A DNA stretch of 64,000 nucleotides, from assembly GCA_964521185.1 (NCBI GenBank), contig CAZFRC010000001.1, positions 7,023 to 71,022 on the forward strand, in the 5' to 3' direction. Numbering within the stretch: the first letter of the stretch is position 1; each line of letters starts with the position of its first letter. This DNA is from an uncultured Candidatus Saccharibacteria bacterium. Lineage in GTDB: Bacteria > Patescibacteriota > Minisyncoccia > Phycocordibacterales > UBA12088. Below, one piece after another: positions 4,318 to 47,546 of the stretch. The notes under the pieces are model-generated. The model saw only the letters and a list, made by a program, of their open reading frames with translations, had not been told where the DNA came from and searched no databases. A program made the position numbers and the translations under genes.

Positions 4318-4351
4318 CATTCCAACCTTCTCCATTTATTGGCAATAAACT

Positions 4352-4466: not shown

Positions 4467-4532
4467 TTTATATATTTCCACTTTGGCGAGACAATACCAC
4501 AGAAATCTTCTATACTTCAGCATATTTTTAAT

Positions 4533-6670: not shown

Positions 6671-9148
6671 ATGGCTCGCTACGATCATATTCACATTGAA
6701 AAAAAGTGGCAGGAACGATGGGAACGAGACGACTCATTCCAAGCGACTGAAAATATTGAGAAAAAAAAGTTTTACGCACTTATAGAATTTCCGTATCCGT
6801 CAGGTGCGGGACTTCATACGGGGCACATCAGAAGCTATACGGCCCTTGATGCGGTTGTACGGAAACGCCGTCGTGAAAACCAGGAAGTGCTATTTCCTAT
6901 CGGATGGGACGCCTTTGGCTTGCCGACAGAAAATTATGCTATTAAAACAGGCCGCAAGCCCAAAGAGATCACCAAAGAAAATACCGACACGTTTCGACGC
7001 CAGCTCAAATCCATAGGTCTTTCTTTTGACTGGAAACGAGAAATCAACACCACCGACCCCTCGTACTATAAGTGGACCCAGTGGATTTTTTTGCAGCTGT
7101 TTAAAAAGGGTCTTGCTTATAAATCAAAGACAGAGATTAACTGGTGTCCGAAAGATAAGATTGGTCTAGCTAACGAAGAGGTTATCGATGGAAAATGCGA
7201 GCGATGTGGTACCGAAGTAGAAAAGAGAGAAAAAGAGCAATGGATGTTGGCCATCACCAAATACGCAAAACGATTATATGACGATCTTCATACCGTCGAC
7301 TATATTGAACGGGCGAAAATTCAACAGCAAAATTGGATAGGGCCTTCGGAAGGATCGCTCATTACATTTCCACTTGTGGGAATTTCTGGACAACAAGATG
7401 GCGCTCATTCGGTCCAAATATTTACCACGCGATCTGATACTATATACGGCGCTACATTCGTGGTTGTATCGCCCGAGCTTGCAAAGAAATGGATGGAGAT
7501 GGGCTGGCAGATACCGATGGTCGCGAGCGCGTATGTTAACGAAACTCTGAAAGAGCGTGCGAAAGCAGGACGCAAAGACATTGAAGAAAAAACGGGTGTC
7601 GATACTGGAATCTTTGCCATCAACCCGGGAACGAAGGAAAGAATCCCCGTTTGGATCTCCAATTATATTTTGGGAGATGTAGGGACTGGCGCCATTATGG
7701 CTGTTCCTTCACACGATGAACGCGATAATGCGTTTGCAAAGAAATTCGGGCTTCCAATTTCAAGAATGGTCGTTGTTCCTCAAAAAGGATCAGCATCAGA
7801 CGATCTTTCTCATGGAGATCTTTCAAAAATAGCTCAGTATTATCAAAACGAATATGCCGGCTCTCCATTCACTGGTCATGGCATTGTAGTAAATTCTGGA
7901 GCGTACGACGGGCTCACATCAGAAGAAGCGAAAAGAAAAATAACCGAGGACGTGGGAGGGATATTGACTACAAAATATAAACTTCGGGATTGGGTGTTTT
8001 CTCGTCAGCGCTACTGGGGAGAACCCATACCCCTCGTGTATTGCGAATCGTGCGCGGAATGGATTCCTGTTCCTGAAGACGAACTCCCGATTACGTTGCC
8101 GGAGATTTCAAAATATGAATATACCGATACCGGGGAATCGCCGCTCGCAAATATCGCAGAATGGGTGAATACTACGTGTCCAAAATGCAATGGTCCGGCG
8201 AGACGAGAGACAGACACCATGCCAAATTGGGCGGGTTCCAGTTGGTACTATCTTCGATATACCGATCCAAAAAACGATACCAGATTGGCCGACTCAAAAA
8301 AACTCTCCTACTGGACTCCTGTGGATTGGTATAACGGCGGCATGGAACACACGGTTCTACATCTTCTCTATTCTCGGTTTTGGCATAAATTCTTGTTCGA
8401 TATTGGGGTTGCTCCTACTTCAGAACCTTATACAAAACGCACGAGCCACGGCCTTATCCTTGCGGAAGGAGGAGAAAAGATGTCGAAATCGAAAGGGAAC
8501 GTGGTGAATCCGGATGATATCGTGGAACGATTCGGGGCTGACGCGCTTCGTGTGTATGAGATGTTTATGGGGCCTTTCGAACAGGCGATTGCATGGTCGA
8601 CCGACGGATTGGTGGGAACACGACGATTCCTGGAACGCGTATATGCGCTTGCTGGCACGCTCAGCGATGCCCGCCCCTCCGACGCACTTTCTCGCATAGA
8701 ACATCAGAGTATTAAAAAAATAGGGGAGGATATCGAAGCGCTTAAAATGAATACCGCTGTGTCGCAGCTTATGATTTTTCAAAATGCGATTAGCAACGAA
8801 AAGAAAACTCCCAAGAGTTCGTTCGAAACCTTTTTATTGTTGCTTGCGCCGTTTGCGCCGCATATAACTGAAGAACTGTGGGAAATGCTTGGACATACCA
8901 CATCAATCCATAAAGAACCATGGCCGACTTTTAATCCGGACATTCTTGAAATCAAAGAAGCCTCTGTATCTGTGATGGTTGACGGAAAAGTCCGAGGATC
9001 TATAGTTCTTTCAGTTGGGATAAGCAAAGAAGAGGCGTTTGGAGAGGCACTTAAATTGGAAACAGTCAAAAAGTGGGTAGATGGAAAGACCCCAAAAACT
9101 GCCGCCTATGTGCCGGGAAAGATTATTAGCTTAACCACTAATGGCTAA
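6671..9148 (+). CDS. leuS: Leucyl-tRNA synthetase
   Basis: PYPSGAGLHTGHIRSY (HIGH region), KMSKSKGN, editing domain present, 825 aa. Confidence 0.95.
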   Translation: MARYDHIHIEKKWQERWERDDSFQATENIEKKKFYALIEFPYPSGAGLHTGHIRSYTALDAVVRKRRRENQEVLFPIGWDAFGLPTENYAIKTGRKPKEITKENTDTFRRQLKSIGLSFDWKREINTTDPSYYKWTQWIFLQLFKKGLAYKSKTEINWCPKDKIGLANEEVIDGKCERCGTEVEKREKEQWMLAITKYAKRLYDDLHTVDYIERAKIQQQNWIGPSEGSLITFPLVGISGQQDGAHSVQIFTTRSDTIYGATFVVVSPELAKKWMEMGWQIPMVASAYVNETLKERAKAGRKDIEEKTGVDTGIFAINPGTKERIPVWISNYILGDVGTGAIMAVPSHDERDNAFAKKFGLPISRMVVVPQKGSASDDLSHGDLSKIAQYYQNEYAGSPFTGHGIVVNSGAYDGLTSEEAKRKITEDVGGILTTKYKLRDWVFSRQRYWGEPIPLVYCESCAEWIPVPEDELPITLPEISKYEYTDTGESPLANIAEWVNTTCPKCNGPARRETDTMPNWAGSSWYYLRYTDPKNDTRLADSKKLSYWTPVDWYNGGMEHTVLHLLYSRFWHKFLFDIGVAPTSEPYTKRTSHGLILAEGGEKMSKSKGNVVNPDDIVERFGADALRVYEMFMGPFEQAIAWSTDGLVGTRRFLERVYALAGTLSDARPSDALSRIEHQSIKKIGEDIEALKMNTAVSQLMIFQNAISNEKKTPKSSFETFLLLLAPFAPHITEELWEMLGHTTSIHKEPWPTFNPDILEIKEASVSVMVDGKVRGSIVLSVGISKEEAFGEALKLETVKKWVDGKTPKTAAYVPGKIISLTTNG

Positions 9149-17152: not shown

Positions 17153-17227
17153 TCCGCTTTTCTTTCTATCTGCGACTGCCACAATGCATTTTGTAGAGAA
17201 AAGCGCCTCGTGATAGTGTGTTCTTCT

Positions 17228-19276
17228 ATGCCAGACTCAGCAGATACCATTCTCCATAACGACGAAGGAATGTGGCTTCCCAATCGGCTTCCGTTGAAGC
17301 GAATAGCCGATCGCCATAACGTGAACCTTCCTCCAAACTTTGGCGAAGAGGTAATGAAGAGGACCGTGCGGATGAATAACGGAGGCTCCGCTTCTTTTGT
17401 TTCTCCCCATGGGCTCATCGCAACCAATCACCATGTGGCAGAAAGCATTCTCTCCGACCTAAGCTCCGAATCGAAAGATTATATTCGCGACGGTTTTTAT
17501 GCTAAGACACAAGAAGAAGAAATTCCCGCTCCTGAACTCGAAGTCAACGTGCTCTGCGAGATCGAAGATGTAACCCTTCGGGTGAAGGCGGCAACTCCTG
17601 ACACCCTTTCTCCGGAATCTTCGCATGCAGCGCGCGATGCCGTGATTGCTGAGATTGAAAAAGAATCATTCGAAAAAACGGGACTTCGAAGCGATGTGGT
17701 AACTTTGTATCAAGGCGGAGTATATCATCTCTACCGTTACAAACGCTATCGCGACGTGCGGGTGGTATTTGCTCCTGAAAAACAAATCGCCTCCTTTGGA
17801 GGAGATTTCGATAATTACGAATATCCGCGGTACTGCCTTGATATCGCGTTCTTGCGCGTGTATGAAAACGGCACTCCGCTTTCTACACCAGACCATTTTG
17901 TATTTAAGACAGAGAGTCCAAAAAACGGCGATCTCTTGTTTATTGCAGGACATCCGGGAACCACGGATCGTCTTTCAACGTACGCCCACATCACATATCT
18001 TCGTGATCACGGATTGCCGCACCGACTCGATATTCTTCGGCGGTATGAAATTTCTCTGCAACAATTTTCAGGAAAGAGCCCCGAATCCAAACGTCGCGCG
18101 GGACCAGAACTTGGAGGTATTCAAAACGGACGAAAACGCTACGTGGGACAATTGTGGGCTCTTCAAGAACCGAATTTGATGGCGCGCGTTCACGAGCGTG
18201 AACGCGCGCTTAGAAACGCACTCTCAAATGCTCCGAAAGAGCTCCAGGAACGAGTCGGCGATCCATGGGACGACATAGAAAAAGTCTTACCGATAATGCG
18301 TTCGATGCGAGACGAGATTAATGTCTTTGAAAATTTGCGAGGATTTCGAACTGAATACATGGGCATAGCTCGTACCATCGTGCGATTGCTTACAGAAGAC
18401 CAAAAACCAAACGCAGAGCGTCTACCTGAATTTGGCGACGCAAGACGAGAATCGTTACTAGCCACTCTCTATGCACCCACTCCTCTCTACGACGATCTGG
18501 AAACCTGGAAATTAGCAGATTCACTCGCATATCTTCTTGAAACATTCACTGAAAAAGATTCTATGGTACGCACTATATTGAACGGGAAAAGCCCCCGCAA
18601 TCGAGCATCAGAACTCATTAGTACGACATCATTAAAAGATATCGACGTACGTAAGCGTCTTATCGGCGAAGGGGTGTCGCGCATTGGAGAATCAAAAGAT
18701 TCGATGATCGCGCTTGCGCTTTTTATTGATGAACGGGCGCGATCTATTCGAAAAAAATTTGAGACTGAAGTCGAAGAGGTTTTTGAACGTGCGCATGCAA
18801 AAATAGCTGAAGCACTTTTCAACCTTTATGGAGAAGATCTATATCCGGATGCGACTTTCACCTTGCGAGTTGCGGTTGGTACGGTGCAGAGCTTTAATCG
18901 CGAACAGATGGAAGTTCCTTCCCACACCGTCGTATCGGGAATAGTGCCTCATGGTATGGCGCATAATTTTGAACATCCTTGGGATTTGCCTCCCGCATGG
19001 GATCAGCATCGCAAGTGGATTGAGTCATCCACTTCGGCATTTAATTTTATCACTACACACGACACGCACGGAGGTAATTCAGGAAGTCCTGTGTTCACCA
19101 AAGAATTGGAGATTGTTGGGCTTTTGTTTGACGGCATTATGGAAGGGCAGGGAGACACGTACGTGTATACCGATGAGGTTTCAAGGAGCGTCTCAGTGCA
19201 TGCGGGGGTTATTATCGATTCTCTTACGAACGTATATCATGCCGATCGTCTTGTAAAAGAGCTTCGAAACGCGTAG
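17228..19276 (+). CDS. Peptidase family S46 (DPP7/DPP11-like dipeptidyl-peptidase)
   Basis: N-terminus DEGMWLPNRLP...GGSASFVSPHGLIATNHHV (catalytic His region). C-terminal GGNSGSPVFTKELEIVGLLFDG (catalytic Ser). ~680 aa. No signal peptide before the mature-type N-terminus. Confidence 0.8.
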   Translation: MPDSADTILHNDEGMWLPNRLPLKRIADRHNVNLPPNFGEEVMKRTVRMNNGGSASFVSPHGLIATNHHVAESILSDLSSESKDYIRDGFYAKTQEEEIPAPELEVNVLCEIEDVTLRVKAATPDTLSPESSHAARDAVIAEIEKESFEKTGLRSDVVTLYQGGVYHLYRYKRYRDVRVVFAPEKQIASFGGDFDNYEYPRYCLDIAFLRVYENGTPLSTPDHFVFKTESPKNGDLLFIAGHPGTTDRLSTYAHITYLRDHGLPHRLDILRRYEISLQQFSGKSPESKRRAGPELGGIQNGRKRYVGQLWALQEPNLMARVHERERALRNALSNAPKELQERVGDPWDDIEKVLPIMRSMRDEINVFENLRGFRTEYMGIARTIVRLLTEDQKPNAERLPEFGDARRESLLATLYAPTPLYDDLETWKLADSLAYLLETFTEKDSMVRTILNGKSPRNRASELISTTSLKDIDVRKRLIGEGVSRIGESKDSMIALALFIDERARSIRKKFETEVEEVFERAHAKIAEALFNLYGEDLYPDATFTLRVAVGTVQSFNREQMEVPSHTVVSGIVPHGMAHNFEHPWDLPPAWDQHRKWIESSTSAFNFITTHDTHGGNSGSPVFTKELEIVGLLFDGIMEGQGDTYVYTDEVSRSVSVHAGVIIDSLTNVYHADRLVKELRNA

Positions 19277-19540: not shown

Positions 19541-21442
19541 ATGACACCGAACGAAGTGCGGTTGAAATATCTAACCTTCTTCAAAGCTCGAGGACACGAA
19601 ATTGTGCCTTCTTCTTCTTTGGTTCCTGAAAATGATCCGACGACTCTTTTCACGGGATCGGGCATGCAACCGCTTCTTCCGTATCTTTTGGGACAGCCGC
19701 ACCCGAAGGGGACGCGATTGGCAGATTCACAAAAATGCTTTCGCTCGATGGATATTGAGGAGGTGGGGGACAACCGCCACACGACTTTTTTCGAGATGCT
19801 TGGAAATTGGTCGCTCGGAGATTATTTTAAAAAAGAACAGCTGCGATGGTGTTTTACTTTTTTGGTCGAAGAAATTGGACTTGATCCAAACAAACTTTAT
19901 GTAACCGTTTTTATTGGCGACGAAAAGAACGCTATACCACGTGATACCGAAGCGGTATCTATTTGGAAAGAATTGTTTAAGGAAAAAGGAATCGACGCGA
20001 AAGATGTACTTATCGGCTCCGAAGCAAATGGGTATGAAAAGGGGATGCAGGGAGGACGCATTTTTTATTATGACGCGAAAAAAAACTGGTGGAGTCGGGC
20101 AGGAGTTCCGGAACATATGCCCCAAGGAGAACCGGGAGGGCCCGATTCAGAAGTGTTTTATGATTTTGGAACACCTCATGAACAAAAATGGGGTAAAGAA
20201 TGCCATCCGAACTGTGATTGCGGACGCTTCCTTGAAATCGGAAATTCGGTCTTCATGCAATACATAAAACAGGCAGACGGCTCATTTGCGCTACTTCCCA
20301 AACAGAATGTTGATTTTGGTGGAGGTCTTGAACGGATAGTAATGGCAGCCGCAAACAATCCCGACATTATTGCGACTAATCACGCCGCTATCATTGCCCA
20401 CCTTGAACACGCGTCGGGAAAAAAGTATGGAACGGACGAAAAAGAGACCCGCGCGTTTCGCATCATCGCTGACCATATGAAGGCGGCAGTGTTTCTTATC
20501 AATGACGGGGTTCGACCATCAAACACTGATCAGGGATATTTTGTCCGCCGGTTATTACGTCGGAGCGTGCAATACGCTGATCGATTGGGAATTACAGAAA
20601 GCACGCTGTCAGGAGTAGTGAAACCTATTGTCGTAATGTATACCGAACAGTATCCAGAAATTTCGGCTCACCTCGAAGAAATTGCCCATACGGTAAGAGA
20701 AGAGGAGGAGCGATTTCGACAAACCCTCGCGCGCGGCTTGAAAGAATTTGAAAAACTGGTTTCAGGCCCCATTTCTGCAGAAAATGCATTCAGATTATTT
20801 TCCACATACGGCTTTCCCTTTGAAATGACCCTTGAGCTTGCGGCAGAGCGGGGTGTCCAGGTTGATGAGGCTGGTTTTAAAGAAGAAATGAAGAAACACC
20901 AAGAGGAATCAAGGGCGGGTTCGGAACAAAAGTTTAAGGGCGGGCTTGCGGATGCTTCCGTCGAAACGACACGGCTTCATACCGCGCACCACTTATTACT
21001 TAAAGCACTCCAAATTGTGCTTGGATCACACGTGAAGCAGCGGGGAAGCAACATTACCGCGGAACGGCTTCGTATTGATTTCTCTCATCCCGAAAAAATG
21101 ACGGTAGAGCAATTGTCTGAAGTGGAAAAAATTGTAAACGAAAAAATCAAAGAGCAATTGCCGATGGTCCGATCTATCCTGCCAAAAGAAGAAGCAGAAA
21201 AACTCGGCGCCGAACATGAATTCGGAGCCAAATATCCCGACATGGTCTCTGTATACTCCCTGGGACCTGTTGGAGCATCCGAACGAGACCCACAGTTTAA
21301 CAAAGCGTTTTCCATTGAATTTTGCGGTGGACCTCATGTGGGAAACACTTCGGAGCTTGGCACTTTCACCATTCTCAAAGAAGAAGCGGTGGCAGCGGGA
21401 ATTCGAAGAATAAAAGCGGTACTCCGCTACGATGATTTTTGA
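19541..21442 (+). CDS. alaS: Alanyl-tRNA synthetase, short form (catalytic, tRNA-recognition and editing domains; no C-terminal C-Ala domain)
   Basis: N-terminal class II AlaRS core (FFKARGHEIVPSSSLVP...DPTTLFTGSGMQ). Editing-domain motifs HTAHHLLLKAL and FCGGPHVGNT. The ORF ends at 633 aa, immediately after the editing domain. Confidence 0.9.
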   Translation: MTPNEVRLKYLTFFKARGHEIVPSSSLVPENDPTTLFTGSGMQPLLPYLLGQPHPKGTRLADSQKCFRSMDIEEVGDNRHTTFFEMLGNWSLGDYFKKEQLRWCFTFLVEEIGLDPNKLYVTVFIGDEKNAIPRDTEAVSIWKELFKEKGIDAKDVLIGSEANGYEKGMQGGRIFYYDAKKNWWSRAGVPEHMPQGEPGGPDSEVFYDFGTPHEQKWGKECHPNCDCGRFLEIGNSVFMQYIKQADGSFALLPKQNVDFGGGLERIVMAAANNPDIIATNHAAIIAHLEHASGKKYGTDEKETRAFRIIADHMKAAVFLINDGVRPSNTDQGYFVRRLLRRSVQYADRLGITESTLSGVVKPIVVMYTEQYPEISAHLEEIAHTVREEEERFRQTLARGLKEFEKLVSGPISAENAFRLFSTYGFPFEMTLELAAERGVQVDEAGFKEEMKKHQEESRAGSEQKFKGGLADASVETTRLHTAHHLLLKALQIVLGSHVKQRGSNITAERLRIDFSHPEKMTVEQLSEVEKIVNEKIKEQLPMVRSILPKEEAEKLGAEHEFGAKYPDMVSVYSLGPVGASERDPQFNKAFSIEFCGGPHVGNTSELGTFTILKEEAVAAGIRRIKAVLRYDDF

Positions 21443-31952: not shown

Positions 31953-32477
31953 GTGTTTTCGAAGGATGAGGTTCCCAATCTTCTTATGGATTCAATAGCA
32001 TCAAGTGCACTTGCGGTAGGAGGAGATGCGTGGGGGAACCTCATGTCGCTTTCCGCAGACATACTGGTAATTATCGCCTTGTTTGGAGCAATATTCTTTT
32101 TTGCTACGTTTCGAGGAAACGATCAGTTGATAGGGCTTTTGATTGCTTCATACATGGGGCTCTCCATTGAAAATGCATTTCCGCTCGGTTCAAACCCTCC
32201 GCGTTTTCTTTCCCTTTTGTTATTTGTGGGTGCCACCACCGGCGCATACATCGTCGTCGTACGCTTGCTCTCTCTCTACGGCACTGAGGGTGGAATACGC
32301 ACGTTAGTGTGGCGTCTGATTATATCTGGAGTAGCGACAATTTTTTTCCTATCAATCGCCATACATGAAATTCCTATTGGATACACATTTGACATTATAA
32401 CTATTGACTTTCTTACAGAGCCCTACGCGCATTTTGCTGCAATCGTCTTGCCCTTGATAATTTTCTTCTTTTTATGA
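31953..32477 (+). CDS. Hypothetical polytopic membrane protein
   Basis: ORF track. GTG start at 31953 (alternative ATG 31986). 5-6 hydrophobic helices. Confidence 0.5.
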   Translation: MFSKDEVPNLLMDSIASSALAVGGDAWGNLMSLSADILVIIALFGAIFFFATFRGNDQLIGLLIASYMGLSIENAFPLGSNPPRFLSLLLFVGATTGAYIVVVRLLSLYGTEGGIRTLVWRLIISGVATIFFLSIAIHEIPIGYTFDIITIDFLTEPYAHFAAIVLPLIIFFFL

Positions 32478-32493
32478 TTACTCATCAGGTACG

Positions 32494-32522
32494 TTGACTC
32501 ACGCGATATTTCTACATATGAT
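32494..32522 (+). promoter_or_regulatory. Candidate sigma-70 promoter: TTGACT, 17-nt spacer, TATGAT
   Basis: TTGACT 32494-32499, spacer 32500-32516, TATGAT 32517-32522. ~40 nt upstream of the 32562 ATG. Confidence 0.45.
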
Positions 32523-32561: not shown

Positions 32562-33134
32562 ATGATAACTTCCGCATTCGGTATCGCATCTGGTGTCTTG
32601 ACACTCGTGGGCCTCTTAATATATGCGCGAAGCATTGTCCTTGGCTTCACCAAACCTTCTCAGGTGACTTGGAGCATTTGGACACTAAATGCGTTTCTCC
32701 TTCTCGGTAGTTATTATTTATCCGGCGCGCGCGATACGGCCTGGCTTTCGGTAGGATACGCCATCGGCTTGTGCGTTATTTCAATTCTTTCTCTGAAATA
32801 TGGCATCACCGGATGGGGCACGCTTGATAAAGTATGCCTTGCGGGAGCGCTGCTCGCTGCAGGGTTGTGGATCTGGACTGGATCCGCGTTATTGGCATTC
32901 ATACTCACACTCATCATAGATATGCTGGGCATTATTCCTACTATTTGGAAAACCTGGTTTGAACCCGGCGAAGAAGATTTAACATCTTGGACAATTCTTT
33001 TAATCGGTGGAATATCGAGTATATTTGCTATCGAAAAATGGGAATTTGTAGTTGCCTCGTATCCTCTTCAAATCACTGTTACTACACTAATTATTGTACT
33101 TTTTATCCTTATACGAAAACCCCAGCATTTATGA
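32562..33134 (+). CDS. Hypothetical polytopic membrane protein (6-7 TM)
   Basis: ORF track. Its stop TGA 33132-33134 overlaps the ATG of the next gene (ATGA). Confidence 0.5.
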   Translation: MITSAFGIASGVLTLVGLLIYARSIVLGFTKPSQVTWSIWTLNAFLLLGSYYLSGARDTAWLSVGYAIGLCVISILSLKYGITGWGTLDKVCLAGALLAAGLWIWTGSALLAFILTLIIDMLGIIPTIWKTWFEPGEEDLTSWTILLIGGISSIFAIEKWEFVVASYPLQITVTTLIIVLFILIRKPQHL

Positions 33135-34375
33135 TGCGAAATCTCCCAACTCCTGACTTCAACACAACAATAACAAACCCTCTAGAAGAACTACAGCACC
33201 TGGTTATTGGTGAAATCAATACAATCTATCCTGAACTAGGAGGAGATTTCAAATTGGTTCTTGAAAGCCCTCCCCCTCATATTCATGCAGATTATTCTTT
33301 CGCCGTATATACACTCTCAATGCGCATCAAACAGGACAAGAAGGAAATCGCCGAAAATATTGCTTCCGCAATTTTACGTACGCGACACCATCTGATTACT
33401 GCCGTGGACGTCGTGGGTCCTTATGTCAATGTTGTAATAAACAAATCTCGATTTTCTGAACAGGCATTGCTCTACATACAAAAACGCGGAGATCAATTTG
33501 GGGTTGAATATCTTTCCCATGAACCCTCAATGGTAATATCATATTTATCTTCTCAAAATACCGTACCCGATGGCATTGAAACATCACGCATGCTTTGGAC
33601 TGGCGGAATAATAGGACGCCTAGCCTCTAAAAATGGAACAAAAGTCACCCACGAATGGTACGGCTCCGACATTGCTTCCTTCGATCTTCTTCCTCATACT
33701 GATTTTCTGATCACACCACATATACGAAGCAATTTTTCTTCTTTAGGAGAAAAATTGGTCGCAGAGACGCTCCGTAAAGGCAAGGCGGCATATATTCCAG
33801 GTTCACGCGCGGTATTTTTAGACTTCAACGGCACCCCTTTTGTTCTTCAAAAACACAGTGGCCAAATCGCCAATATCGCCCAAGACATTGCGTATATTCA
33901 AGATACAGTGGCAAGAAATTCTCCAACCCGAATCATTAGCGTATCTCTCCAAAAAGAAGCGGACGATATGCGCGCTGTCTTTGATTGCGCGCGCTACCTA
34001 GAATGCCTTGCTTCCGATATTGCTTATTCCGCGACAACCATCCGTATACCAATAGAGGAATCTAATTCTGTAATTGATCCAAACACTCCGGCTGGAACAC
34101 ACCGAAATTCTGAAACACAATATTCAGATACGCTGAACGAAGAAGGGCGCCTCTTCGATCTCACGAAGACTCTCCTCCTGTTTCCTCGTGTGCTCCACAT
34201 TGTTCAACATTCTTTTGAACCAAACGAACTCTTTTCATTTCTTAGCAAACTGGAGCTTAAATCACGGCAGTTGCATATGGGCCCAGAAGTCATCTCGACA
34301 GTTCAACATATCCTAGAGGAAGGTTACAGATATCTCGGATTACAATTCCCCGACAAGAAACTGATGAATTTCTGA
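33131..34375 (+). CDS. Arginyl-tRNA-synthetase-like protein with degenerate catalytic motifs (pseudo-ArgRS paralogue or highly divergent ArgRS)
   Basis: ArgRS N-terminal additional domain: PPPHIHADYSFAVYTLSMRIKQDKKEIAENIASAIL...ITAVDVVGPYVNVVIN (cf. GDY..N.AM.LAK.L...PR.IAE.I...L...I.KVEIAGPGFIN). The core aligns with ArgRS (RLASKNGTKVTHEWYGSD vs [20 protein letters not shown]), but the HIGH position reads PDGIETSR instead of xHVGHxRS. The DALR-type C-terminus is retained (YRYLGLQFPDKKLMNF vs LDLLGIEAPERM). 414 aa, against ~550-580 for canonical ArgRS. The real start is the ATG at 33131, not the 32987 ORF-track start. Confidence 0.65.
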   Translation: MMRNLPTPDFNTTITNPLEELQHLVIGEINTIYPELGGDFKLVLESPPPHIHADYSFAVYTLSMRIKQDKKEIAENIASAILRTRHHLITAVDVVGPYVNVVINKSRFSEQALLYIQKRGDQFGVEYLSHEPSMVISYLSSQNTVPDGIETSRMLWTGGIIGRLASKNGTKVTHEWYGSDIASFDLLPHTDFLITPHIRSNFSSLGEKLVAETLRKGKAAYIPGSRAVFLDFNGTPFVLQKHSGQIANIAQDIAYIQDTVARNSPTRIISVSLQKEADDMRAVFDCARYLECLASDIAYSATTIRIPIEESNSVIDPNTPAGTHRNSETQYSDTLNEEGRLFDLTKTLLLFPRVLHIVQHSFEPNELFSFLSKLELKSRQLHMGPEVISTVQHILEEGYRYLGLQFPDKKLMNF

Positions 34376-35605
34376 AGAAATAAGTATCGGACGGTAATGA
34401 TATGTCCCCTTATATTTTGAGTAGTTTGCTTTTGGGCCATATCCGCCAAACGGTTCATTGCCGCGCTCCACATCGTTGAGGATCTTATTTTGCAAAACCA
34501 CTGTATTGGGTATTTCAAACGTGAGAGGATGTTTTGAAAATACAGAAGCATACATGGCAACATCTCGATATCTCGGAGCTAAAAAATATTGCTGCAACTC
34601 CGTCTCATTGGTATACACCAATATATAGAATACAGGACTAAAAAATTCAAAAGGGGTGAAATTGGAAAGATCCTTGAGCGTCTCCACGATTACCGTAGGG
34701 AACACTGTGTGGTGTTCATCTACCGTTCCTCCGTATACAATCGTGTTTTTATGTTGATCGAAAAACGCCTGTACTGTTGCCGACTGTTCGGATTTAAGAA
34801 GAGGGCCTATCCTGACGTCTCGGTTATGGTAATCTTCCCCTATGCGAATCTCTGCAAGTGAAGCAATGAGTTCACTTTTAAAATCAGAGAGGACACGTTC
34901 ATGAACAAATATAATGTCCGAACCATGGCAATCTTGCCCGCTGTTAAAAATCCTGGCTTCGATTGTCTTTGCAACTGATTCTTTCAAATCTGCCGAATCG
35001 GTGATCACGATCGGATTCACCCCATATCCGGAGTAGATAAAGAGAGCCTGAGGACAGGCAGCCTCAACATCTTTTGCGTTTTCGTATCGCCCAGTAAACA
35101 CCACTACGTCGGCGACAGATACAAACGCCTCCAGGTACACACTTCGATCCACGTCGACAAAACGCACATGAGGGAATACTGTATTAATTTCAAGGAGCTC
35201 ACAGATCTGCTTCATGAGATTCCGCATCAAAAGCGGCGGCCTCGCGATGAGCTCTTTGCTCATAAATCCAGGAACTATGCCGTAAAGGATAAGGGAATAC
35301 AGGGGAAGATTGATGGGAAAAAATACGCACATTAAATCCACAAAACCCTTTGAAAGAAAATCGTGTTCTTTGTTAAGATTCCGCAGACAATCAATCGATC
35401 TTACTATTTCATCTTTGACGGTTTCAAAACTTTCATACGTAAGCAGAAGCTCGGTCAGTTGCTCCTGCTTTGTTTCTATACAATGAATAAGCGTCTGTGA
35501 CGCGTGATCGATTTCAGTAATACGTTTTTTTACGTCTATGTCAGAGCGTAAATAAGAAGACACGAGTACTATCATACCATATAAATTGGAGGGGGGCTGA
35601 AGCAT
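34340..35605 (-). CDS. Aldehyde dehydrogenase superfamily protein (short, divergent)
   Basis: ALDH Cys motif FNSGQDCHGSD, Glu motif EFFSPVFYIL, and YSGYGVNPIVITDSADL (cf. ELGGKSPNIVFADADL). 421 aa. Its 3' end overlaps the ArgRS-like gene by 36 nt (convergent). Confidence 0.7.
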   Translation of the reverse strand: MLQPPSNLYGMIVLVSSYLRSDIDVKKRITEIDHASQTLIHCIETKQEQLTELLLTYESFETVKDEIVRSIDCLRNLNKEHDFLSKGFVDLMCVFFPINLPLYSLILYGIVPGFMSKELIARPPLLMRNLMKQICELLEINTVFPHVRFVDVDRSVYLEAFVSVADVVVFTGRYENAKDVEAACPQALFIYSGYGVNPIVITDSADLKESVAKTIEARIFNSGQDCHGSDIIFVHERVLSDFKSELIASLAEIRIGEDYHNRDVRIGPLLKSEQSATVQAFFDQHKNTIVYGGTVDEHHTVFPTVIVETLKDLSNFTPFEFFSPVFYILVYTNETELQQYFLAPRYRDVAMYASVFSKHPLTFEIPNTVVLQNKILNDVERGNEPFGGYGPKANYSKYKGTYHYRPILISSEIHQFLVGEL

Positions 35606-35673: not shown

Positions 35674-36504
35674 GTGATGTTGCTCCAGCGTCAAATCGAT
35701 TCTCTTTTCTTAATAGGAATATACGCATTAGTTATTGCGTGGTGGATAACCATCTATGCACGGGGCATTGAGGGAACTTCTGAAAACTATCTGTTCAGTC
35801 TGCTCTATAGTGGAATGCCGCTTGGCTGGGGAATCATTGGATTCATGAGATCTCGAAGCTGGGGTGGGTTTTCAAGTTCAATGGGACGCGCGGTTTTCTT
35901 CCTCTCAGCCGGTATATTTGCGTGGGGCATAGGAAATCTTATTTTTGGGTACTACAATTTAATTCTTAAGGTTGAAATACCTTATCCTTCTCTTGCTGAT
36001 ATGGGATTTGTACTTCTGTATCCGCTTTCAGCTATCGGAGTGTTGTACCTTTCCCGCGCCACGGGAGCTCTGTCAAAACTACGCAGTCTTACGGGAAAAG
36101 TCATTCTGTTGATTATCCCTGTCTGTATGATGTTCCTATCTTATTACCTCCTAGTAACAATAGCTCGAGATGGAGTTATCACAAAACACGCAGGGGACCT
36201 GCTTAAAGTCATTCTTGACGTGGCCTATCCTATAGGCGATGTTATTACGATTACCCTTGCATCAATCGTATACGCTCTTTCTTTTCGTCAGCTCGGAGGC
36301 GTTTTTCGGACGCCCGTCATCCTTATTCTGCTTAGTTTCGTATCATTCTACTTTGCCGACTTTCTCTTTTCCTATACTACCACCGTCGGAACTTATTTTG
36401 TGGGGAAATGGGTAGATATCTTTTATCCGACCGCTTTTGTGCTTATCGGGTTGGGATTAAGCCTGTTAAGTCCCAACATCGTTTCAGAGTCAGTCAACGA
36501 TTGA
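35674..36504 (+). CDS. Hypothetical polytopic membrane protein (~8 TM)
   Basis: ORF track. Hydrophobic throughout. Confidence 0.5.
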   Translation: MMLLQRQIDSLFLIGIYALVIAWWITIYARGIEGTSENYLFSLLYSGMPLGWGIIGFMRSRSWGGFSSSMGRAVFFLSAGIFAWGIGNLIFGYYNLILKVEIPYPSLADMGFVLLYPLSAIGVLYLSRATGALSKLRSLTGKVILLIIPVCMMFLSYYLLVTIARDGVITKHAGDLLKVILDVAYPIGDVITITLASIVYALSFRQLGGVFRTPVILILLSFVSFYFADFLFSYTTTVGTYFVGKWVDIFYPTAFVLIGLGLSLLSPNIVSESVND

Positions 36505-36520
36505 TGCAACAAAAAGAATT

Positions 36521-36808
36521 ATGACGGCGGTAACCTTACAACAAATCGCAATTAATATCGTTAGAGAACAGGAACTTGTCATCGGACCCTTAGCTTGGAT
36601 TGAAGCGATGAAAGTCAGAGGCATACAGGTAAACCGAGAACAAAAGGAGCTACTGATTCTAAACGAGGATCCAAAAGAGACGGTGGATCGGTTGGTTGCT
36701 CAGTATGAACATCTTTTTGGCCTGGCATCAAAAGAGGTGTGCAAAGAGGCTGCCTCTGCTCTGATTGCTGATCTGCCTGAAACCGAAATTCCGAACAGTC
36801 TCCGATAA
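36521..36808 (+). CDS. Small hypothetical cytoplasmic protein (95 aa)
   Basis: ORF track. No motif recognised. Lies between the membrane protein and the histidine kinase. Confidence 0.4.
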   Translation: MTAVTLQQIAINIVREQELVIGPLAWIEAMKVRGIQVNREQKELLILNEDPKETVDRLVAQYEHLFGLASKEVCKEAASALIADLPETEIPNSLR

Positions 36809-38274: not shown

Positions 38275-39222
38275 ATGGGAACCAATAAAAAACGTCTCTT
38301 GACAGGGCTCCAACCTTCTGGTCAATTGCATATTGGTAATTATTTTGGAGCGCTCAAGCCCTTTGTTGAGCAATATAAAAATTTTGACAGCGTTCTGATG
38401 GTTGCCGACTACCACGCCCTGACTTCGGTTAAAAATCCAGCCACTTTGAGACAGCGCATCACCGATGTAGTTAAAGACTACCTTGCGCTCGGCATTGACC
38501 CGAATACCGTCATATTGTTTAAACAGTCAGATATCGCAGCACATACTGAGCTTGCTTGGATTTTCGAATGTTTAGTGAGCGTACCCTTTCTGATGCAGGG
38601 TCACGCGTATAAAGATAAAATAGCAAAAGGAATTGAGGCAAATGCGGGACTATTTAACTATCCCATGCTTATGGCAGCCGACATCCTGTTGTACGACACT
38701 GACGTCGTCCCTGTCGGTGAAGATCAACGTCAGCACATCGAATATGCTCGCGAAGCTGCAAACAAATTTAACAACGTATTTGGCGAAACGTTCACTGAAC
38801 CGGATGGAATGATTTTAAAAGGGGTGGGAATCATTCCCGGCACCGATGGCCAAAAGATGAGCAAAAGTTATGGAAATACCATACCGTTGTTCGGTTCTAA
38901 AGATGATATTGCGAAAGCGGTAATGAGTATTGTAACTGACTCGTCTGGAGAATTTCCTATACACGTGCATGCAATACACGCGTTGTACAAAACCACATCA
39001 GAACTGCAGGTACTCTACGAAACTAATAAACATAATTACAAAACCCTCAAAGAAGCGCTCATCGAAGATATAGAACATACGGCGATGCCCATGCGAGAAA
39101 AACGAAATTCTATTTCGGACGAGTATGTGTGGCGCGTATTGGCCGAAGGGGCTGAAAAAGCTCAAGCTATCGCGTCAAAAAAAATAGAGCTTGTGCGTCA
39201 GCGAGTAGGCGTAGTGTTATAA
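38275..39222 (+). CDS. trpS: Tryptophanyl-tRNA synthetase
   Basis: LTGLQPSGQLHIGNYFGA (HIGH region) and KMSKSYGN. Confidence 0.95.
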   Translation: MGTNKKRLLTGLQPSGQLHIGNYFGALKPFVEQYKNFDSVLMVADYHALTSVKNPATLRQRITDVVKDYLALGIDPNTVILFKQSDIAAHTELAWIFECLVSVPFLMQGHAYKDKIAKGIEANAGLFNYPMLMAADILLYDTDVVPVGEDQRQHIEYAREAANKFNNVFGETFTEPDGMILKGVGIIPGTDGQKMSKSYGNTIPLFGSKDDIAKAVMSIVTDSSGEFPIHVHAIHALYKTTSELQVLYETNKHNYKTLKEALIEDIEHTAMPMREKRNSISDEYVWRVLAEGAEKAQAIASKKIELVRQRVGVVL

Positions 39223-39236
39223 ATTAATCTCTTAGT

Positions 39237-40568
39237 ATGGAACGCGCCCTTATCAAAGATTTACACGATTATATAGGAAAAGAAGTAAAGATTGCGGGTT
39301 GGGTAGACACGCGCCGCGATCATGGAAAACTCGCATTTTTTGATATTCGAGATAGGTCAGGCATTCTTCAAACCGTTATCCTTCCGAACCACACGGAAGC
39401 GGTGGCAGCTTCCAAGGAACTTCGTGGAGAATGGGTGGTTGAATGTGTTGGTGTTGTGAACTCGCGACCAGAGAAAATGGTTAACCCTCTTTTGCCAACA
39501 GGGGATATAGAACTTGAAATAACCGCTATCAATATACTTTCGCGGGCGCAGGAACTTCCTTTCGAAAAAGATACCGAGGTCAATCTCGACACCCATCTTG
39601 ATTATCTCCCCTATACCCTCCGATCGAAACGCAGCCAGGACATCTTTACGGTGCAATCCACCATACTTGAGGCGTATCGAGAATCACTCAGACTTCAAGG
39701 ATTTCGAGAATTTCAAGCTCCCGCAATCGTAGGAGGAGATGCGGAAGGCGGTTCAGCAGTTTTTAAAATCAATTATTTCAACAATATCGGAGCATATCTT
39801 GCCACAAGCCCCCAGCTATATAAAGAGATAATGGTTGGAGCATTTGAACGAGCCTTTACCGTCGCAAAGGTATTTCGAGCAGAAAAAAGTGCCACGACGC
39901 GGCATTTGGCGGAAATAACTCAAATGGATTTTGAAATGGGTTTTATACAAAATCATAACGACGTAATGACAGTTCTTGAAAAGGTCATCAGGCATGTGGT
40001 TGCCACAGTCAAAGAACGCCACTCTGACGTATTCCGCTCCATGCAGATTGAACCCCCTCTCGCCCCAGAATCATTCCCCGTACTTACACTAACCGAAGCG
40101 CAACATATTCTTGAGGCAGAAATGAAAACAAAAGTGGTGGGAGAGCTCGATATGGCGCCGGAACATGAACGGGTGATTTGCGAATGGGCGCTTCGAGAAA
40201 AAAAATCAGATTTTATTTTCATCACCCACTACCCAACTAACAGTCGTGCTTTTTACACATATGAGGATCCGACTGAAAAACCATTTTCGAGAAGTTTCGA
40301 CCTTTTATTTAGAGGTATCGAAATAAACAGTGGAAGTCAGCGTATCCACGAATACGACGCTTTGGTGACCCGCATGAAAGAACGTGGTATGGATCCAAAG
40401 AAATTCTCTTACTATCTGCAAGCCTTCAAATACGGCATGCCTCCCCACGGAGGATGTTCGACAGGTCTTGAACGCTTTACGGCACGAATGTTACAAATCC
40501 AAAATGTAAAGGAGGCGACCGCATTTCCTCGCGACATTAATCGCATTGATTCTCTCCTCTCACAATAA
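39237..40568 (+). CDS. aspS: Aspartyl-tRNA synthetase, type 2 (archaeal/eukaryal-like, probably non-discriminating)
   Basis: Class IIb: N-terminal OB fold, motif 2 FRAEKSATTRHLAEITQMDFEM, motif 3 GSQRIHEYDALVTRMKERGMDPKKFSYYLQAFKYGMPPHGGCSTGLERF. YLxAFxYGMPPHGG is AspRS-type rather than AsnRS-type. 443 aa. Confidence 0.8.
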   Translation: MERALIKDLHDYIGKEVKIAGWVDTRRDHGKLAFFDIRDRSGILQTVILPNHTEAVAASKELRGEWVVECVGVVNSRPEKMVNPLLPTGDIELEITAINILSRAQELPFEKDTEVNLDTHLDYLPYTLRSKRSQDIFTVQSTILEAYRESLRLQGFREFQAPAIVGGDAEGGSAVFKINYFNNIGAYLATSPQLYKEIMVGAFERAFTVAKVFRAEKSATTRHLAEITQMDFEMGFIQNHNDVMTVLEKVIRHVVATVKERHSDVFRSMQIEPPLAPESFPVLTLTEAQHILEAEMKTKVVGELDMAPEHERVICEWALREKKSDFIFITHYPTNSRAFYTYEDPTEKPFSRSFDLLFRGIEINSGSQRIHEYDALVTRMKERGMDPKKFSYYLQAFKYGMPPHGGCSTGLERFTARMLQIQNVKEATAFPRDINRIDSLLSQ

Positions 40569-45101: not shown

Positions 45102-46228
45102 AAATAGTATTTACTGGAGGTGGAAGCGGGGGGCATTTTTACCCCATTATAGCCATAGCGGAAGCTTTGGAGGATATTGTAGAGAAAAAAAATCTAATAA
45201 AACCAGCATTGTATTACATGGGCCCAACTCCATACGACGAGAGGCTTTTGTTTGAACATGAGATCCAATATTTGCAGGCACCAGCAGGAAAGATGCGGAT
45301 GTATAGCGATATAAAAAATGTATTCGATTACTTTCGTACTTTTATAGGCGTTGTCAAATCGATTTTTGTACTATGGAGCATTTTCCCTGACGTGGTGGTG
45401 TCGAAAGGAGGATACGCGAGTTTTCCCACTACAGTAGCCGCGTGGCTGCTCGGTATTCCTATTTTTGTCCATGATTCAGATGCGATTCCCGGACGGGCAA
45501 ATATATGGGCGGGACAACACGCCCGCGCTGTAGCAGTATCTTATCCAGAAGCAGCGGAATATTTTCAAAAAAAAGAAGTCGTGGTGTTTACTGGAAATCC
45601 TGTAAGGAAAGAATTGCAGCACGCGGCTCGTGAAGGAGGTCATGACTTTTTCAAGTTGCAACCATTACTGAAGACAATACTCGTGCTTGGCGGTTCACAA
45701 GGCGCGACTTTTCTTAACGACGTGATTCTCGAAGCGCTGCCACTCATAGTCAACGATTACCAGATTATTCACCAGACGGGAACCGCAAACGAACAAGAAG
45801 TGTCTTCTACTGCCAATGTAATTCTAGAAAACAATCCTCATAAAAATCGGTATTATCCTGTTGGATATTTAAATGCCGCGGCACTCAAAATGGCCGCGGG
45901 TGCTGCCGATCTTGTGGTATCACGGGCCGGAAGTGGCAGTATTTTTGAAATAGCCGCATGGGGAAAACCTTCCATTCTTATACCGATTCCAAAAGATATT
46001 AGTCGTGACCAGCACACTAATGCGTTTGCATATGCGCGAACAGGAGCTGCAACAGTGATTGAACAGAATAATTTCACCCCACACGTCCTAATTGCAGAAT
46101 TACATCGAATTCTCGATAATCCGGGTATTTACGAAGCACTCGCAAAAGCCGCTTCGAATTTTGGAAAAAAAGATGCCGCGCAAAAAATAGCCGAGAAAAT
46201 CGTCGCACTTGTTATAGAACATGAATAA
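45098..46228 (+). CDS. murG: UDP-N-acetylglucosamine--N-acetylmuramyl-(pentapeptide) pyrophosphoryl-undecaprenol N-acetylglucosamine transferase
   Basis: MKIVFTGGGSGGHFYPIIAIAEAL. GT28 N- and C-terminal domains. 4-nt overlap with ftsW. Confidence 0.9.
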   Translation: MKIVFTGGGSGGHFYPIIAIAEALEDIVEKKNLIKPALYYMGPTPYDERLLFEHEIQYLQAPAGKMRMYSDIKNVFDYFRTFIGVVKSIFVLWSIFPDVVVSKGGYASFPTTVAAWLLGIPIFVHDSDAIPGRANIWAGQHARAVAVSYPEAAEYFQKKEVVVFTGNPVRKELQHAAREGGHDFFKLQPLLKTILVLGGSQGATFLNDVILEALPLIVNDYQIIHQTGTANEQEVSSTANVILENNPHKNRYYPVGYLNAAALKMAAGAADLVVSRAGSGSIFEIAAWGKPSILIPIPKDISRDQHTNAFAYARTGAATVIEQNNFTPHVLIAELHRILDNPGIYEALAKAASNFGKKDAAQKIAEKIVALVIEHE

Positions 46229-47546
46229 AGGTGTCATTACCCGTTTTGCGCCAAGTCCAACCGGCTTTCTTCATGCCGGTAACTACAGGACAGCGGTGTT
46301 TGCATATCTTTTTGCTCGACACGCCAAAGGAGCGTTTGTGCTACGTATTGAAGACACAGATCGCATACGATCTAAAAAAGAATATGAAGATAACATTCTC
46401 GAGTGCCTGAACTGGCTTACGCTTGAACATGATGCGTTTTACAGACAGAGCGATCATGTCAATCGGCACCGTGAACTTCTTGAACGTCTTATTTCAGAAG
46501 ACAAAGCCTATCTATCAAAAGAAGCTGACGAAGAAGGGAAGCGTGGTGAAGTGATTCGTTTTCGAAATCCCAAAAAACTTGTTACCTTTGTAGACGCTAT
46601 TCGAGGTCCCATTACTGTGGATACCACTGATCTTGGTGATTTCGTTATTGCAAAAGCTTTGGATGAACCTGTATTTCATTTTGTAGTGGTCGTCGATGAT
46701 TTTGATGAAGGGATTTCTCATGTGATACGTGGAGAAGACCATATTTCGAATACTCCGCGCCAAATTTTGATCCAAGAGGCACTTGGATTTTCGATGCCTA
46801 TCTATGCACATCTTCCGCTTGTCATCGGCAAAGATCGAACAAAATTGTCCAAGCGTCGAGGCGCGAAACCTCTACTTGAATATCGAAACATGGGGATTCT
46901 GTCTGATGCGCTTTTAAACTACATTGCACTTCTTGGATGGAATCCTGGCACACCACAAGAAATATTTAGCAAAGAAAATCTTATCGAATCGTTTTCTCTT
47001 GAAAAAATACAACGAAGTCCTGGCATGTTCGACGAAGAAAAACTTCGATGGGTAAACAAAAAACACATCGAGCTTCTTTCCGATGAAGAAATCAAAAAAA
47101 ACATAACGCCGCTTGTCCAGTCTACTATAGCCAATAGTGCTGTGGTGATATCTGACATCAAAACCAGAATAAGCGCGTTTAGTGATGTAACCACGCTGGC
47201 ACATAATGGCGAATTTGATGTATATACTAAAAAACCAACACTTGAGCCCAAAAAACTGCCCTGGCGTGAATCAAACCCAGAAAAAACAAAACACGTTTTG
47301 CGTGAGACCATCGATATTTTGAAAAAAAAGGAAGGGGCAATAACCATTGATTCCATGAAAGAGACTCTTTCTCCGCTCGTCGAAAAAGAAGGGAAGGGGG
47401 CTGTGTTGTGGCCAATCCGATACGCACTCTCTGGTAAAGATCGGTCTCCTGATCCCTACACCCTTTTGGCTGCTATTGAAGAGATATATGGACGAGGAGA
47501 AGTATTAGCTCGACTGGAAGCCGCACATGATATTTTATTAGGATGA
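46221..47546 (+). CDS. gltX: Glutamyl-tRNA synthetase (possibly non-discriminating)
   Basis: RFAPSPTGFLHAGNYRTAVF (HIGH region), KLSKRRGA. 441 aa. 8-nt overlap with murG. Confidence 0.95.
   Translation: MNKGVITRFAPSPTGFLHAGNYRTAVFAYLFARHAKGAFVLRIEDTDRIRSKKEYEDNILECLNWLTLEHDAFYRQSDHVNRHRELLERLISEDKAYLSKEADEEGKRGEVIRFRNPKKLVTFVDAIRGPITVDTTDLGDFVIAKALDEPVFHFVVVVDDFDEGISHVIRGEDHISNTPRQILIQEALGFSMPIYAHLPLVIGKDRTKLSKRRGAKPLLEYRNMGILSDALLNYIALLGWNPGTPQEIFSKENLIESFSLEKIQRSPGMFDEEKLRWVNKKHIELLSDEEIKKNITPLVQSTIANSAVVISDIKTRISAFSDVTTLAHNGEFDVYTKKPTLEPKKLPWRESNPEKTKHVLRETIDILKKKEGAITIDSMKETLSPLVEKEGKGAVLWPIRYALSGKDRSPDPYTLLAAIEEIYGRGEVLARLEAAHDILLG

Follow-up and report, generated by a model that had tools for sequence, protein, structure and literature searches.

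Can a protein that keeps the architecture of arginyl-tRNA synthetase (ArgRS) but not its signature motif still charge tRNA, and, if it cannot, to what use has the scaffold been put? This question is raised by a gene at positions 33131-34375 of a 64,000-nucleotide (nt) stretch of DNA from an uncultured Candidatus Saccharibacteria bacterium (contig CAZFRC010000001.1), which we refer to as the window. An earlier note, made from the letters alone, had taken its product to be either a catalytically dead aminoacyl-tRNA synthetase (aaRS) paralogue recruited to a membrane-associated function or the only, extraordinarily divergent ArgRS of the organism. We show here, by alignment with canonical enzymes and with its own relatives, that the product is to all appearances a catalytically inactive ArgRS paralogue, a pseudo-synthetase that has lost everything for Arg-AMP synthesis. 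As to its role, we lean towards a non-catalytic, tRNAArg-binding, membrane-tethered subunit, in which the pseudo-ArgRS would sit on a transporter-like protein.

The window protein is an eroded ArgRS homologue

The gene and the parts of its product are located as follows.
33131 to 34375, plus strand: ArgRS-like pseudo-synthetase gene, translated into 414 amino acids (aa)
33167 to 33505, plus strand: Add1 domain (ArgRS N-terminal, tRNA D-loop-binding), residues 13-125 (PF03485, 3.4e-7)
33416 to 33430, plus strand: GPYVN, the Tyr-x-Asn motif of the A20 recognition pocket, residues 96-100
33506 to 34045, plus strand: remnant Rossmann-fold core, residues 126-305, its strands and helices modelled at a predicted local distance difference test score (pLDDT) of ~90
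33566 to 33589, plus strand: PDGIETSR at the class I HIGH position, residues 146-153
34136 to 34372, plus strand: shortened C-terminal helical domain (DALR/Add2-type), residues 336-414, covered by the 2zue and 6ao8 profile alignments

Searched against Pfam, the window protein matched Arg_tRNA_synt_N (PF03485) with 31.2 bits at a cut-off of 21.5, which bears out the ArgRS-specific N-terminal domain that had been read from the translation. A match to tRNA-synt_1d (PF00750) was not found in it at E<=1, and DALR_1 (PF05746) stayed below threshold (17.2 bits against 22.3). Despite this sub-threshold score, the C-terminal region is still homologous to ArgRS by profile and by fold, such that the earlier assignment of a DALR-type C-terminus stands as homology, but not as a Pfam match. 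When the PDB was searched with phmmer, ArgRS was the only match (2zue, P. horikoshii, 1e-5); the profile of the family described below matched 2zue with 4.9e-29 and 6ao8 with 6e-27, the alignment to 6ao8 spanning nearly the whole chain. Structure prediction, which had been proposed as a check, yielded a confident ArgRS-fold model: computed with AlphaFold on 20 relatives, it reached a pLDDT of 84.4 and a predicted TM-score (pTM) of 0.78, with residues 1-12 and 307-332 disordered. The top 20 Foldseek matches of this model in the PDB were all ArgRS (E down to 5e-16), with query TM-scores (TMq) of 0.52-0.71 overall and 0.60-0.71 for 19 full-length ArgRS chains; CysRS/MshC, MetRS and class I LysRS followed below. 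With 414 aa compared to 558-639 aa for canonical ArgRS, the protein is indeed shorter by the ~150 aa that had been estimated. The core had also been said to align through the GDWG region, where, however, a MAFFT alignment with 10 canonical ArgRS places only 'GSDIAS'. Taken by its profile and alignment matches, the window protein is a full-length but eroded ArgRS homologue, and not a singleton.

Catalytic features are lost throughout the family

At the HIGH position, alignments to PLHMGHAR and MHVGHLRS place PDGIETSR, as the earlier note had read it. Of this segment, the trailing Arg (R153) alone survives and is 95% conserved in the family, whereas H-x-G-H occurs in none of the 20 relatives and the nine-residue loop is deleted in five of them. 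Regular expressions for H-x-G-[HNS] and for KMSK found no match anywhere in the window protein. Alignment with 10 canonical ArgRS further revealed that the 'H..fG....KMS(T/S)R.G' loop is deleted together with ~55 following residues, a loss that adds to the features noticed earlier, and that the 'G.EQ..HF' motif is absent from the family. Per-residue comparison, as had been suggested, thus found neither HIGH nor KMSKS retained. Many ArgRS lack a canonical KMSK (PMC3956977). The positions equivalent to D118, Y313 and D317 of the E. coli enzyme, in which D118A and D317A abolish Arg binding (PMC3956977), are occupied by Ser, Asn and Asp in the window protein; across the family they are Asn or variable, variable, and His, Tyr, Gln or variable, respectively, and hence not conserved. 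Moreover, the window protein and most members have lost Ins-1 (~100 aa), which the long forms P0006, P0019, P0020 and P0021 keep.

The window provides an internal control for these losses. HIGH is kept by its LeuRS (HTGH), TrpRS (HIGN) and GluRS (HAGN), KMSKS by its LeuRS and TrpRS, and the Pfam scores of its synthetases are ordinary (AlaRS 414, GluRS 255 and TrpRS 201 bits). Because these enzymes keep their motifs and score normally, the synthetases of the lineage should not be generally aberrant. The family-wide loss of HIGH, the KMSK loop and the Arg-binding residues supports the first of the two readings offered earlier, that of a catalytically dead paralogue.

A relative of the pseudo-synthetase coexists with a canonical ArgRS

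An exhaustive HMMER search over 1.84 billion representatives returned about 20 relatives of 398-571 aa (E 1e-31 to 1e-9), which are ~25-30% identical; canonical ArgRS ranked under these family members, with E>=1e-7. A word-indexed protein search with the single sequence retrieved only the window protein itself and weak ArgRS matches, and a profile re-search through the same type of index recovered two family members. Related loci were gathered with a 7-sequence alignment via one peptide pattern, by which few loci were sampled. We examined 15 of them, namely the window (identical to L001), L002, L003, L012 and L023-L033. Named sources include a metagenome-assembled genome (MAG) of Candidatus Saccharibacteria (L002) and one of Candidatus Peribacteria (L003), and the family has so far been seen only in genomes of the candidate phyla radiation (CPR)/Patescibacteria type. 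Against the ArgRS model TIGR00456, with its cut-off of 261.65 bits, the window protein scored 50.8 bits and its relatives from 31.8 (P0026) to 128.7 (P0019). These values follow a series from 571 aa with 128.7 bits down to 398-424 aa with 31.8-58 bits, and the spread of scores looks like a gradient of erosion.

Whether such a protein could be the only ArgRS of its organism is best judged from the L032 contig. There, P0026 lies with its usual neighbours ~500 bp downstream of a canonical argS, the product of which (566 aa, 384.9 bits against TIGR00456) carries 'HIGH', 'KMSSR', 'LYMTSD' and 'EQNFYF'. Because P0026 coexists with a canonical ArgRS, the family should represent a paralogue and not the only ArgRS. 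On the strength of this contig, the second reading of the earlier note is effectively rejected at the family level; for the organism's own genome, tblastn with four ArgRS queries covered the 64-kb window and found no canonical argS within it.

Conservation points to recognition of tRNAArg

If catalysis has been given up, the positions that remain conserved should indicate what has been kept. Positions that are invariant or conserved to 95% cluster in Add1 (P17, P48, D54, G96, P97, Y98 and N100), and mean pairwise identity is highest in this domain, with 31.6% as compared to 24% in the N-terminal half of the Rossmann core. Of the GPYVN motif, all 20 family members share G96 and N100, and 95% of them P97 and Y98; an identical GPYVN is carried by the canonical ArgRS of L032. 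Y98-x-N100 corresponds to the Tyr/Phe-Asn motif by which ArgRS builds its pocket for A20, and A20 is the main identity nucleotide of tRNAArg (PMC3956977, section 7). This distribution suggests selection on reading of the tRNAArg D-loop and none on catalysis. Since the family invariants are the A20-pocket residues of Add1, binding of tRNAArg, charged or uncharged, is most likely retained. The window protein is one of the few acidic members of the family.

An RNA or tRNA partner encoded next to the gene was also considered and dropped, as neither the window nor the 14 related loci contain tRNA genes and the window gave no Rfam matches.

The gene belongs to a conserved module

The neighbourhood of the gene comprises the following features.
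32494 to 32522, plus strand: sigma-70-like promoter candidate, TTGACT-17-TATGAT, 10/12 matches, 5' of the memB190 gene
32562 to 33134, plus strand: memB190, a 7-helix membrane protein of 190 aa, candidate transporter of PnuC/SWEET-like (3+1+3) type, its stop overlapping the ArgRS-like start
34340 to 35605, minus strand: aldehyde dehydrogenase (ALDH)-superfamily protein of 421 aa, Pfam Aldedh (PF00171) 9.1e-25
35674 to 36504, plus strand: memC276, a polytopic membrane protein
36521 to 36808, plus strand: p95, a conserved soluble protein of 95 aa
36830 to 38233, plus strand: GAF-HisKA-HATPase sensor histidine kinase, assigned by Pfam

Comparison of the loci, which had been recommended as a co-occurrence check, revealed a module with the order memB, pseudo-ArgRS, convergent ALDH-like gene, memC276, p95 and GAF histidine kinase. 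Of these partners the earlier note had seen memB, which is conserved, and had overlooked the ALDH-like gene, memC276, p95 and the kinase. A memB190 homologue lies directly upstream of the ArgRS-like gene in 10 of the 14 loci with the upstream side visible. In the window, the two genes share an ATGA at 33131-33134, as had been described: the ATG of the ArgRS-like gene (33131-33133) overlaps the TGA of memB190 (33132-33134). The frame can also be read from a TTG at 32987; the ATG is preferred because public gene calls use it and because 'NPLEEL' starts 10-20 residues in for all relatives. Overlaps of 4-11 nt between memB and the ArgRS-like gene occur in five loci (window, L003, L023, L027 and L030), and in P0012, encoded at L025, both are fused into one 654-aa polypeptide that puts the pseudo-ArgRS after transmembrane helix 7 (TM7) of memB, the tail of TM7 being basic. 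Together, the upstream position in 10 of 14 loci and the fusion in P0012 support the membrane-associated function that had been suggested.

Coupling to a second membrane-protein gene had been suggested as well. This gene, a 174-aa hydrophobic open reading frame (ORF) at 31953-32477 between dnaJ and the module, is without family hits: a homologue was sought in the other 14 loci and not found, and it has no Pfam or NCBIfam match. The ORF could be particular to this lineage, or no genuine gene at all. As it has no counterpart in the other loci, memB190 should be the single upstream membrane gene that is truly coupled. The promoter at 32494-32522 had been assigned to both membrane genes; the site exists, but it is placed 3' of the first ORF and can therefore serve only the memB190 and ArgRS-like genes. 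Promoter-like matches in the region are not enriched (9 observed versus 11.7 expected from shuffles).

For memB190, the predicted model has seven helices and is of low confidence (pLDDT 61). PnuC is its best structural match by two methods, and in Foldseek PnuC (4qtn) ranks first and second with a probability of 0.99-1.0 and a TMq of 0.51-0.55, the next TM-scores being <=0.41; sequence identity to PnuC is 9-10%. TM1-2 align in register with TM5-6 (hhalign local E 0.0087), as expected for a 3+1+3 repeat of the SWEET/PnuC type. At the sequence level, eight memB homologues gave no match to PF04973 (NMN_transporter) at E<=10, memB190 itself has no Pfam or NCBIfam match, and its family profile found no PDB sequence match even at E<=10. 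We therefore treat a PnuC-like transporter as a supported lead from modelling, not as membership in that family. In L024, L026 and L028, which encode long-form ArgRS-like proteins, the partner is instead a small protein of four helices (107-117 aa) that shows a weak TMEM234/DMT-like match:
L024, 286 to 636: DMT/TMEM234-like partner
L026, 137 to 490: DMT/TMEM234-like partner
L028, 6062 to 6385, minus strand: DMT/TMEM234-like partner
Since the long forms that retain Ins-1 are those paired with the DMT/TMEM234-like protein, the switch of membrane partner tracks the sub-family. In L032, an AdoMet decarboxylase gene occupies the position upstream of P0026.

Downstream, the arrangement is more uniform still. 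A convergent gene of the ALDH family follows directly in all 13 loci with the downstream side visible, and in 12 of these (window, L002, L012, L023, L024, L026-L030, L032 and L033) its 3' end overlaps that of the ArgRS-like gene by 4-57 nt, in the window by 36 nt (34340-34375). The conserved overlap could reflect mere compaction, or antisense or transcriptional coupling. The window's ALDH-like protein scores 87.6 bits against PF00171 (cut-off 23), and proteins of this family are ~50% identical between loci, versus 25-30% for the pseudo-ArgRS. Alignment to 4qet and to the family indicates that the nucleophile Cys302 ('FN.GQDC'), the Asn169 motif ('P.NLP') and 'EFF.P' are kept, 'GQDC' being invariant in 13 homologues. 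Glu268, in contrast, is replaced by Ser in the window protein and by Ser, Asn or Asp in the family, and Lys192 by an invariant Arg. Glu268 and Lys192 are catalytic residues of ordinary ALDHs, in which they act in thiol activation and thioester hydrolysis (PMC6127216). Because both are replaced, the ALDH-like protein should not be a standard hydrolytic aldehyde dehydrogenase. Its nearest sequence relatives in the PDB are, weakly, betaine- and amino-aldehyde dehydrogenases. A second ALDH-like paralogue of 623 aa is encoded in L002 (5400-7271); it is 31% identical to that of the window, shares 'NG.G.NP' and 'GQDC', has a C-terminal extension of ~200 aa, and is preceded by an APH-type phosphotransferase gene (4270-5355).

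Beyond the ALDH-like gene, memC276 homologues are found in 10 loci and p95 homologues 3' of memC in seven. Neither has a recognised family: memC276 gave no Pfam or NCBIfam match and p95 no Pfam or PDB match. In the Peribacteria locus L003 (7539-9185), the memC276 homologue is fused to an N-terminal helix-turn-helix (HTH) domain of the TrmB/ArsR type, and this TrmB-type fusion suggests a sensing or regulatory role of memC276, which in L003 would act as a membrane-bound one-component regulator. The GAF-HisKA kinase, the gene of which as a rule closes the module, is present in six loci; its homologues occupy the corresponding place in L026, L027, L029 and L032 and lie close by in L002. A role of the module in anti-phage defence was discarded, as PADLOC gave no match to it beyond a generic kinase-domain match.

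A proposed membrane-tethered tRNAArg reader and its rivals

What, then, could an inactive synthetase do between a membrane protein and an enzyme? In the reading we lean towards, the pseudo-ArgRS would be translated together with memB190, the PnuC-like membrane protein of seven helices, and dock at its cytoplasmic face, for which the 4-11-nt start/stop overlaps and the natural fusion argue. Through Add1, it would still bind tRNAArg, whether charged or uncharged. Speculatively, it might then serve as a sensor or adaptor that is tethered to the membrane, binds tRNAArg and links the state of the tRNAArg pool with the transporter and the ALDH-like enzyme, comparable to the inactive HisRS-like domain of GCN2 reading uncharged tRNA.

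Several findings weigh against this proposal. Binding of tRNA is deduced from five residues and the retained fold, while the anticodon-binding-type domain has a 13-aa deletion and most members are without the C-terminal tail. The window protein is acidic (pI 5.9 versus a family median of 8.7), charge being an equivocal test of RNA binding, and at two near-invariant core positions it carries S243 and A247 in place of the Asp and Thr found in 85% and 95% of its relatives, respectively ('VLQK.D.S.T'). On the side of the membrane, the PnuC-like assignment comes from a low-confidence model (pLDDT 61) that has no sequence-level counterpart. The fusion stands on a single 4-kb metagenomic contig, where a 1-nt assembly error at the overlap could have created it. 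Finally, the membrane partner is a different one in three loci, and none is adjacent in one (L032).

Two rivals are serious. The better surviving one, which we still regard as unlikely, is a small-molecule receptor that dispenses with tRNA: the eroded cleft or the adenine pocket of Add1 would bind the transported compound and trap or gate it at the cytoplasmic face, and the ALDH-like enzyme would convert it. The model for this is NadR, which traps the nicotinamide riboside imported by PnuC; Pnu transporters rely on such cytoplasmic trapping partners. A receptor of this kind would agree with PnuC being the best structural match of the membrane partner by two methods, with the exchange of this partner for another small transporter-like protein of the weak TMEM234/DMT match, with the trimmed anticodon-binding domain and, weakly, with the betaine- and amino-aldehyde dehydrogenases as nearest PDB relatives of the ALDH-like protein. 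It would leave unexplained, however, why the three-domain tRNA-embracing scaffold and the A20 motif were kept. Moreover, the canonical ligand residues are not conserved, an alternative conserved pocket was not found in the protein, and the PnuC assignment is again that of the low-confidence model.

The second serious rival, to which we give a rather low probability, is catalysis that depends on aminoacyl-tRNA. Here the pseudo-ArgRS would hold Arg-tRNAArg and present its ester to the Cys of the ALDH-like protein; NAD(P)H would reduce the resulting thioester to arginine aldehyde, as in glutamyl-tRNA reductase, or the arginyl group would pass to another acceptor, and the small membrane protein would export or import the partner molecule. 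No neighbour is more constant than the ALDH-like gene (13 of 13 loci, 12 of them with a 3' overlap), which speaks for such a reaction, as does the contrast of ~50% with 25-30% identity, the pattern expected of an enzyme with its adaptor. Likewise, the retained Cys302 and Asn169 next to the replaced Glu268 and Lys192 make a non-hydrolytic (reductive or acyl-transfer) reaction plausible, and the A20 pocket is retained. Yet we know of no ALDH-family enzyme that uses aminoacyl-tRNA, the pseudo-ArgRS does not conserve the residues that would hold the arginyl moiety, and overlap and fusion tie it to the membrane protein and not to the ALDH-like protein, the gene of which is convergent with that of the pseudo-ArgRS and not co-transcribed with it. 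In its most specific form, which is decidedly improbable, the module would constitute a second, unrelated type of aminoacyl-tRNA reduction: the dead ArgRS would hand Arg-tRNAArg to a thiol reductase derived from a Glu268-less ALDH, and arginine aldehyde or a derivative would arise at the membrane and be transported by the fused PnuC-/DMT-like protein. If true, such a module would amount to a small-molecule pathway that depends on tRNA and is specific to CPR bacteria.

The two remaining readings are unlikely. Fast evolution (25-30% identity), the gradient of domain loss and the two positions at which the window copy deviates from its family could mark a functionless, decaying remnant of a duplicated argS. 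CPR genomes are streamlined, however, and ORFs are intact in the 15 loci, which come from several lineages including the Saccharibacteria and Peribacteria MAGs; gene order is conserved at this low identity, the start/stop overlaps suggest translational coupling, motifs are invariant and the fold is confident (pLDDT 84). Judged by these features the gene is not a pseudogene, and we consider a remnant very improbable. Least probable of all, to a degree that we would hardly reckon with, is an extremely divergent yet active sole ArgRS, for which the lack of a canonical argS in the 64-kb window and the many KMSK-less ArgRS could be cited, against the absence of HIGH in 20 of 20 relatives (with the loop deleted in five), the loss of the KMSK-equivalent loop and of the D118, Y313 and D317 equivalents, a TIGR00456 score of 50.8 versus 261.65 bits, the ordinary AlaRS, GluRS and TrpRS of the window, and the contig that P0026 shares with a canonical ArgRS.

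Relation to known synthetase-derived proteins

Compared to canonical ArgRS (TIGR00456; 1bs2/1f7u, 1iq0, 2zue, 4oby and 6ao8), the window protein has the same three-part architecture and fold (TMq 0.60-0.71) and shares the Tyr-x-Asn A20 pocket, R153, part of the 'vL.k.DG' strand and the C-terminal 'LGLQFP'. Unlike these enzymes, it is without HIGH, the KMSK loop and ~55 aa, Ins-1, EQ..HF and the Arg-binding residues. The HisRS-like domain of GCN2 and HisZ, which read tRNA or a ligand, are aaRS paralogues without catalytic function. They are likewise synthetase scaffolds that have lost aminoacylation and are reused as binding or regulatory subunits; they differ in that their parent is the class II HisRS and not the class I ArgRS, and in having no transporter-like or ALDH-like partners. 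Non-catalytic aaRS paralogues form a general category in a 2022 review of duplicated aaRS (PMC9437257), the text of which contains no ArgRS-derived example. Our literature search for a bacterial ArgRS-like paralogue returned nothing relevant.

Cyclodipeptide synthases are class I aaRS-like enzymes that use aminoacyl-tRNA without HIGH or KMSKS, and provide a precedent for a 'dead' aminoacyl-tRNA-binding core. As Rossmann-fold relatives without ATP-binding signatures they resemble the pseudo-ArgRS, but they are derived from TyrRS/TrpRS and consist of the catalytic domain only, with no Add1 or anticodon domain; neither a sequence match nor a fold match (Foldseek) between a cyclodipeptide synthase and the window protein was found. 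With LysX and MprF, the pseudo-ArgRS has in common that an aaRS-related protein is physically joined to a membrane protein. LysX, however, has an active LysRS, a DUF2156-type transferase and a large flippase domain, whereas the aaRS part of the window protein is inactive, and Pfam found no transferase or flippase domain of this kind in seven neighbouring proteins or their homologues. The analogy to MprF/LysX drawn in the earlier note is thus left without support, and lipid aminoacylation of this type was dropped for want of a transferase domain. NrtL (NF045898, ArgS-related anticodon-binding protein) is also an ArgS-derived, presumably non-catalytic bacterial family, recognised by NCBI. The window protein does not match NF045898 at E<=1, P0015, the best family member, reaches 23.7 bits where 340 are required, and we found no paper on NrtL in the literature. 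The pseudo-ArgRS accordingly resembles synthetase-derived pseudoenzymes and is a member of none of those named; it is an apparently CPR-restricted variant of the theme.

We found no description of an ArgRS-derived pseudoenzyme, or of one wired to a membrane transporter-like protein; HisZ, the HisRS-like domain of GCN2 and cyclodipeptide synthases each revealed new biology. Both the family and its module of six genes appear to be restricted to CPR/Patescibacteria, which cannot make most amino acids, nucleotides and lipids and must obtain them from their hosts. If the reading as a tRNAArg-binding subunit is true, a tRNAArg-reading protein on a transporter would link translation status to uptake and metabolism in CPR bacteria. 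In annotation, the N-terminal domain alone can get such genes mislabelled as argS.

Further features of the window and of related loci

Genes related to S-adenosylmethionine (SAM) adjoin the module in three loci.
L032, 4664 to 5086: AdoMet decarboxylase (TIGR03330, 77.5 bits)
L025, 2 to 865: MetK (SAM-synthetase)-like ORF, recognised by eye from its translation
L027, 11350 to 12312: class I SAM methyltransferase
These neighbours may hint at polyamine or arginine-derived chemistry, or may be a coincidence. Upstream of the module in L028 (297-4699), genes for DHQ-synthase-like, GHMP kinase, short-chain dehydrogenase, NUDIX/NDPSase and amidohydrolase proteins form a cluster that resembles cyclitol or sugar-nucleotide biosynthesis.

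In the window itself, the surroundings of the pseudo-ArgRS are unusually rich in synthetases, with six canonical aaRS genes in 64 kb.
6671 to 9148: LeuRS
19541 to 21442: AlaRS
38275 to 39222: TrpRS
39237 to 40568: AspRS
46221 to 47546: GluRS
~63100 to 64000: CysRS, which runs off the window end

Two further genes of the window encode a UbiA-family prenyltransferase with an unannotated N-terminal extension of ~290 aa (2647-4317) and a full-length S46 peptidase of the DPP7/11 type (17210-19276).

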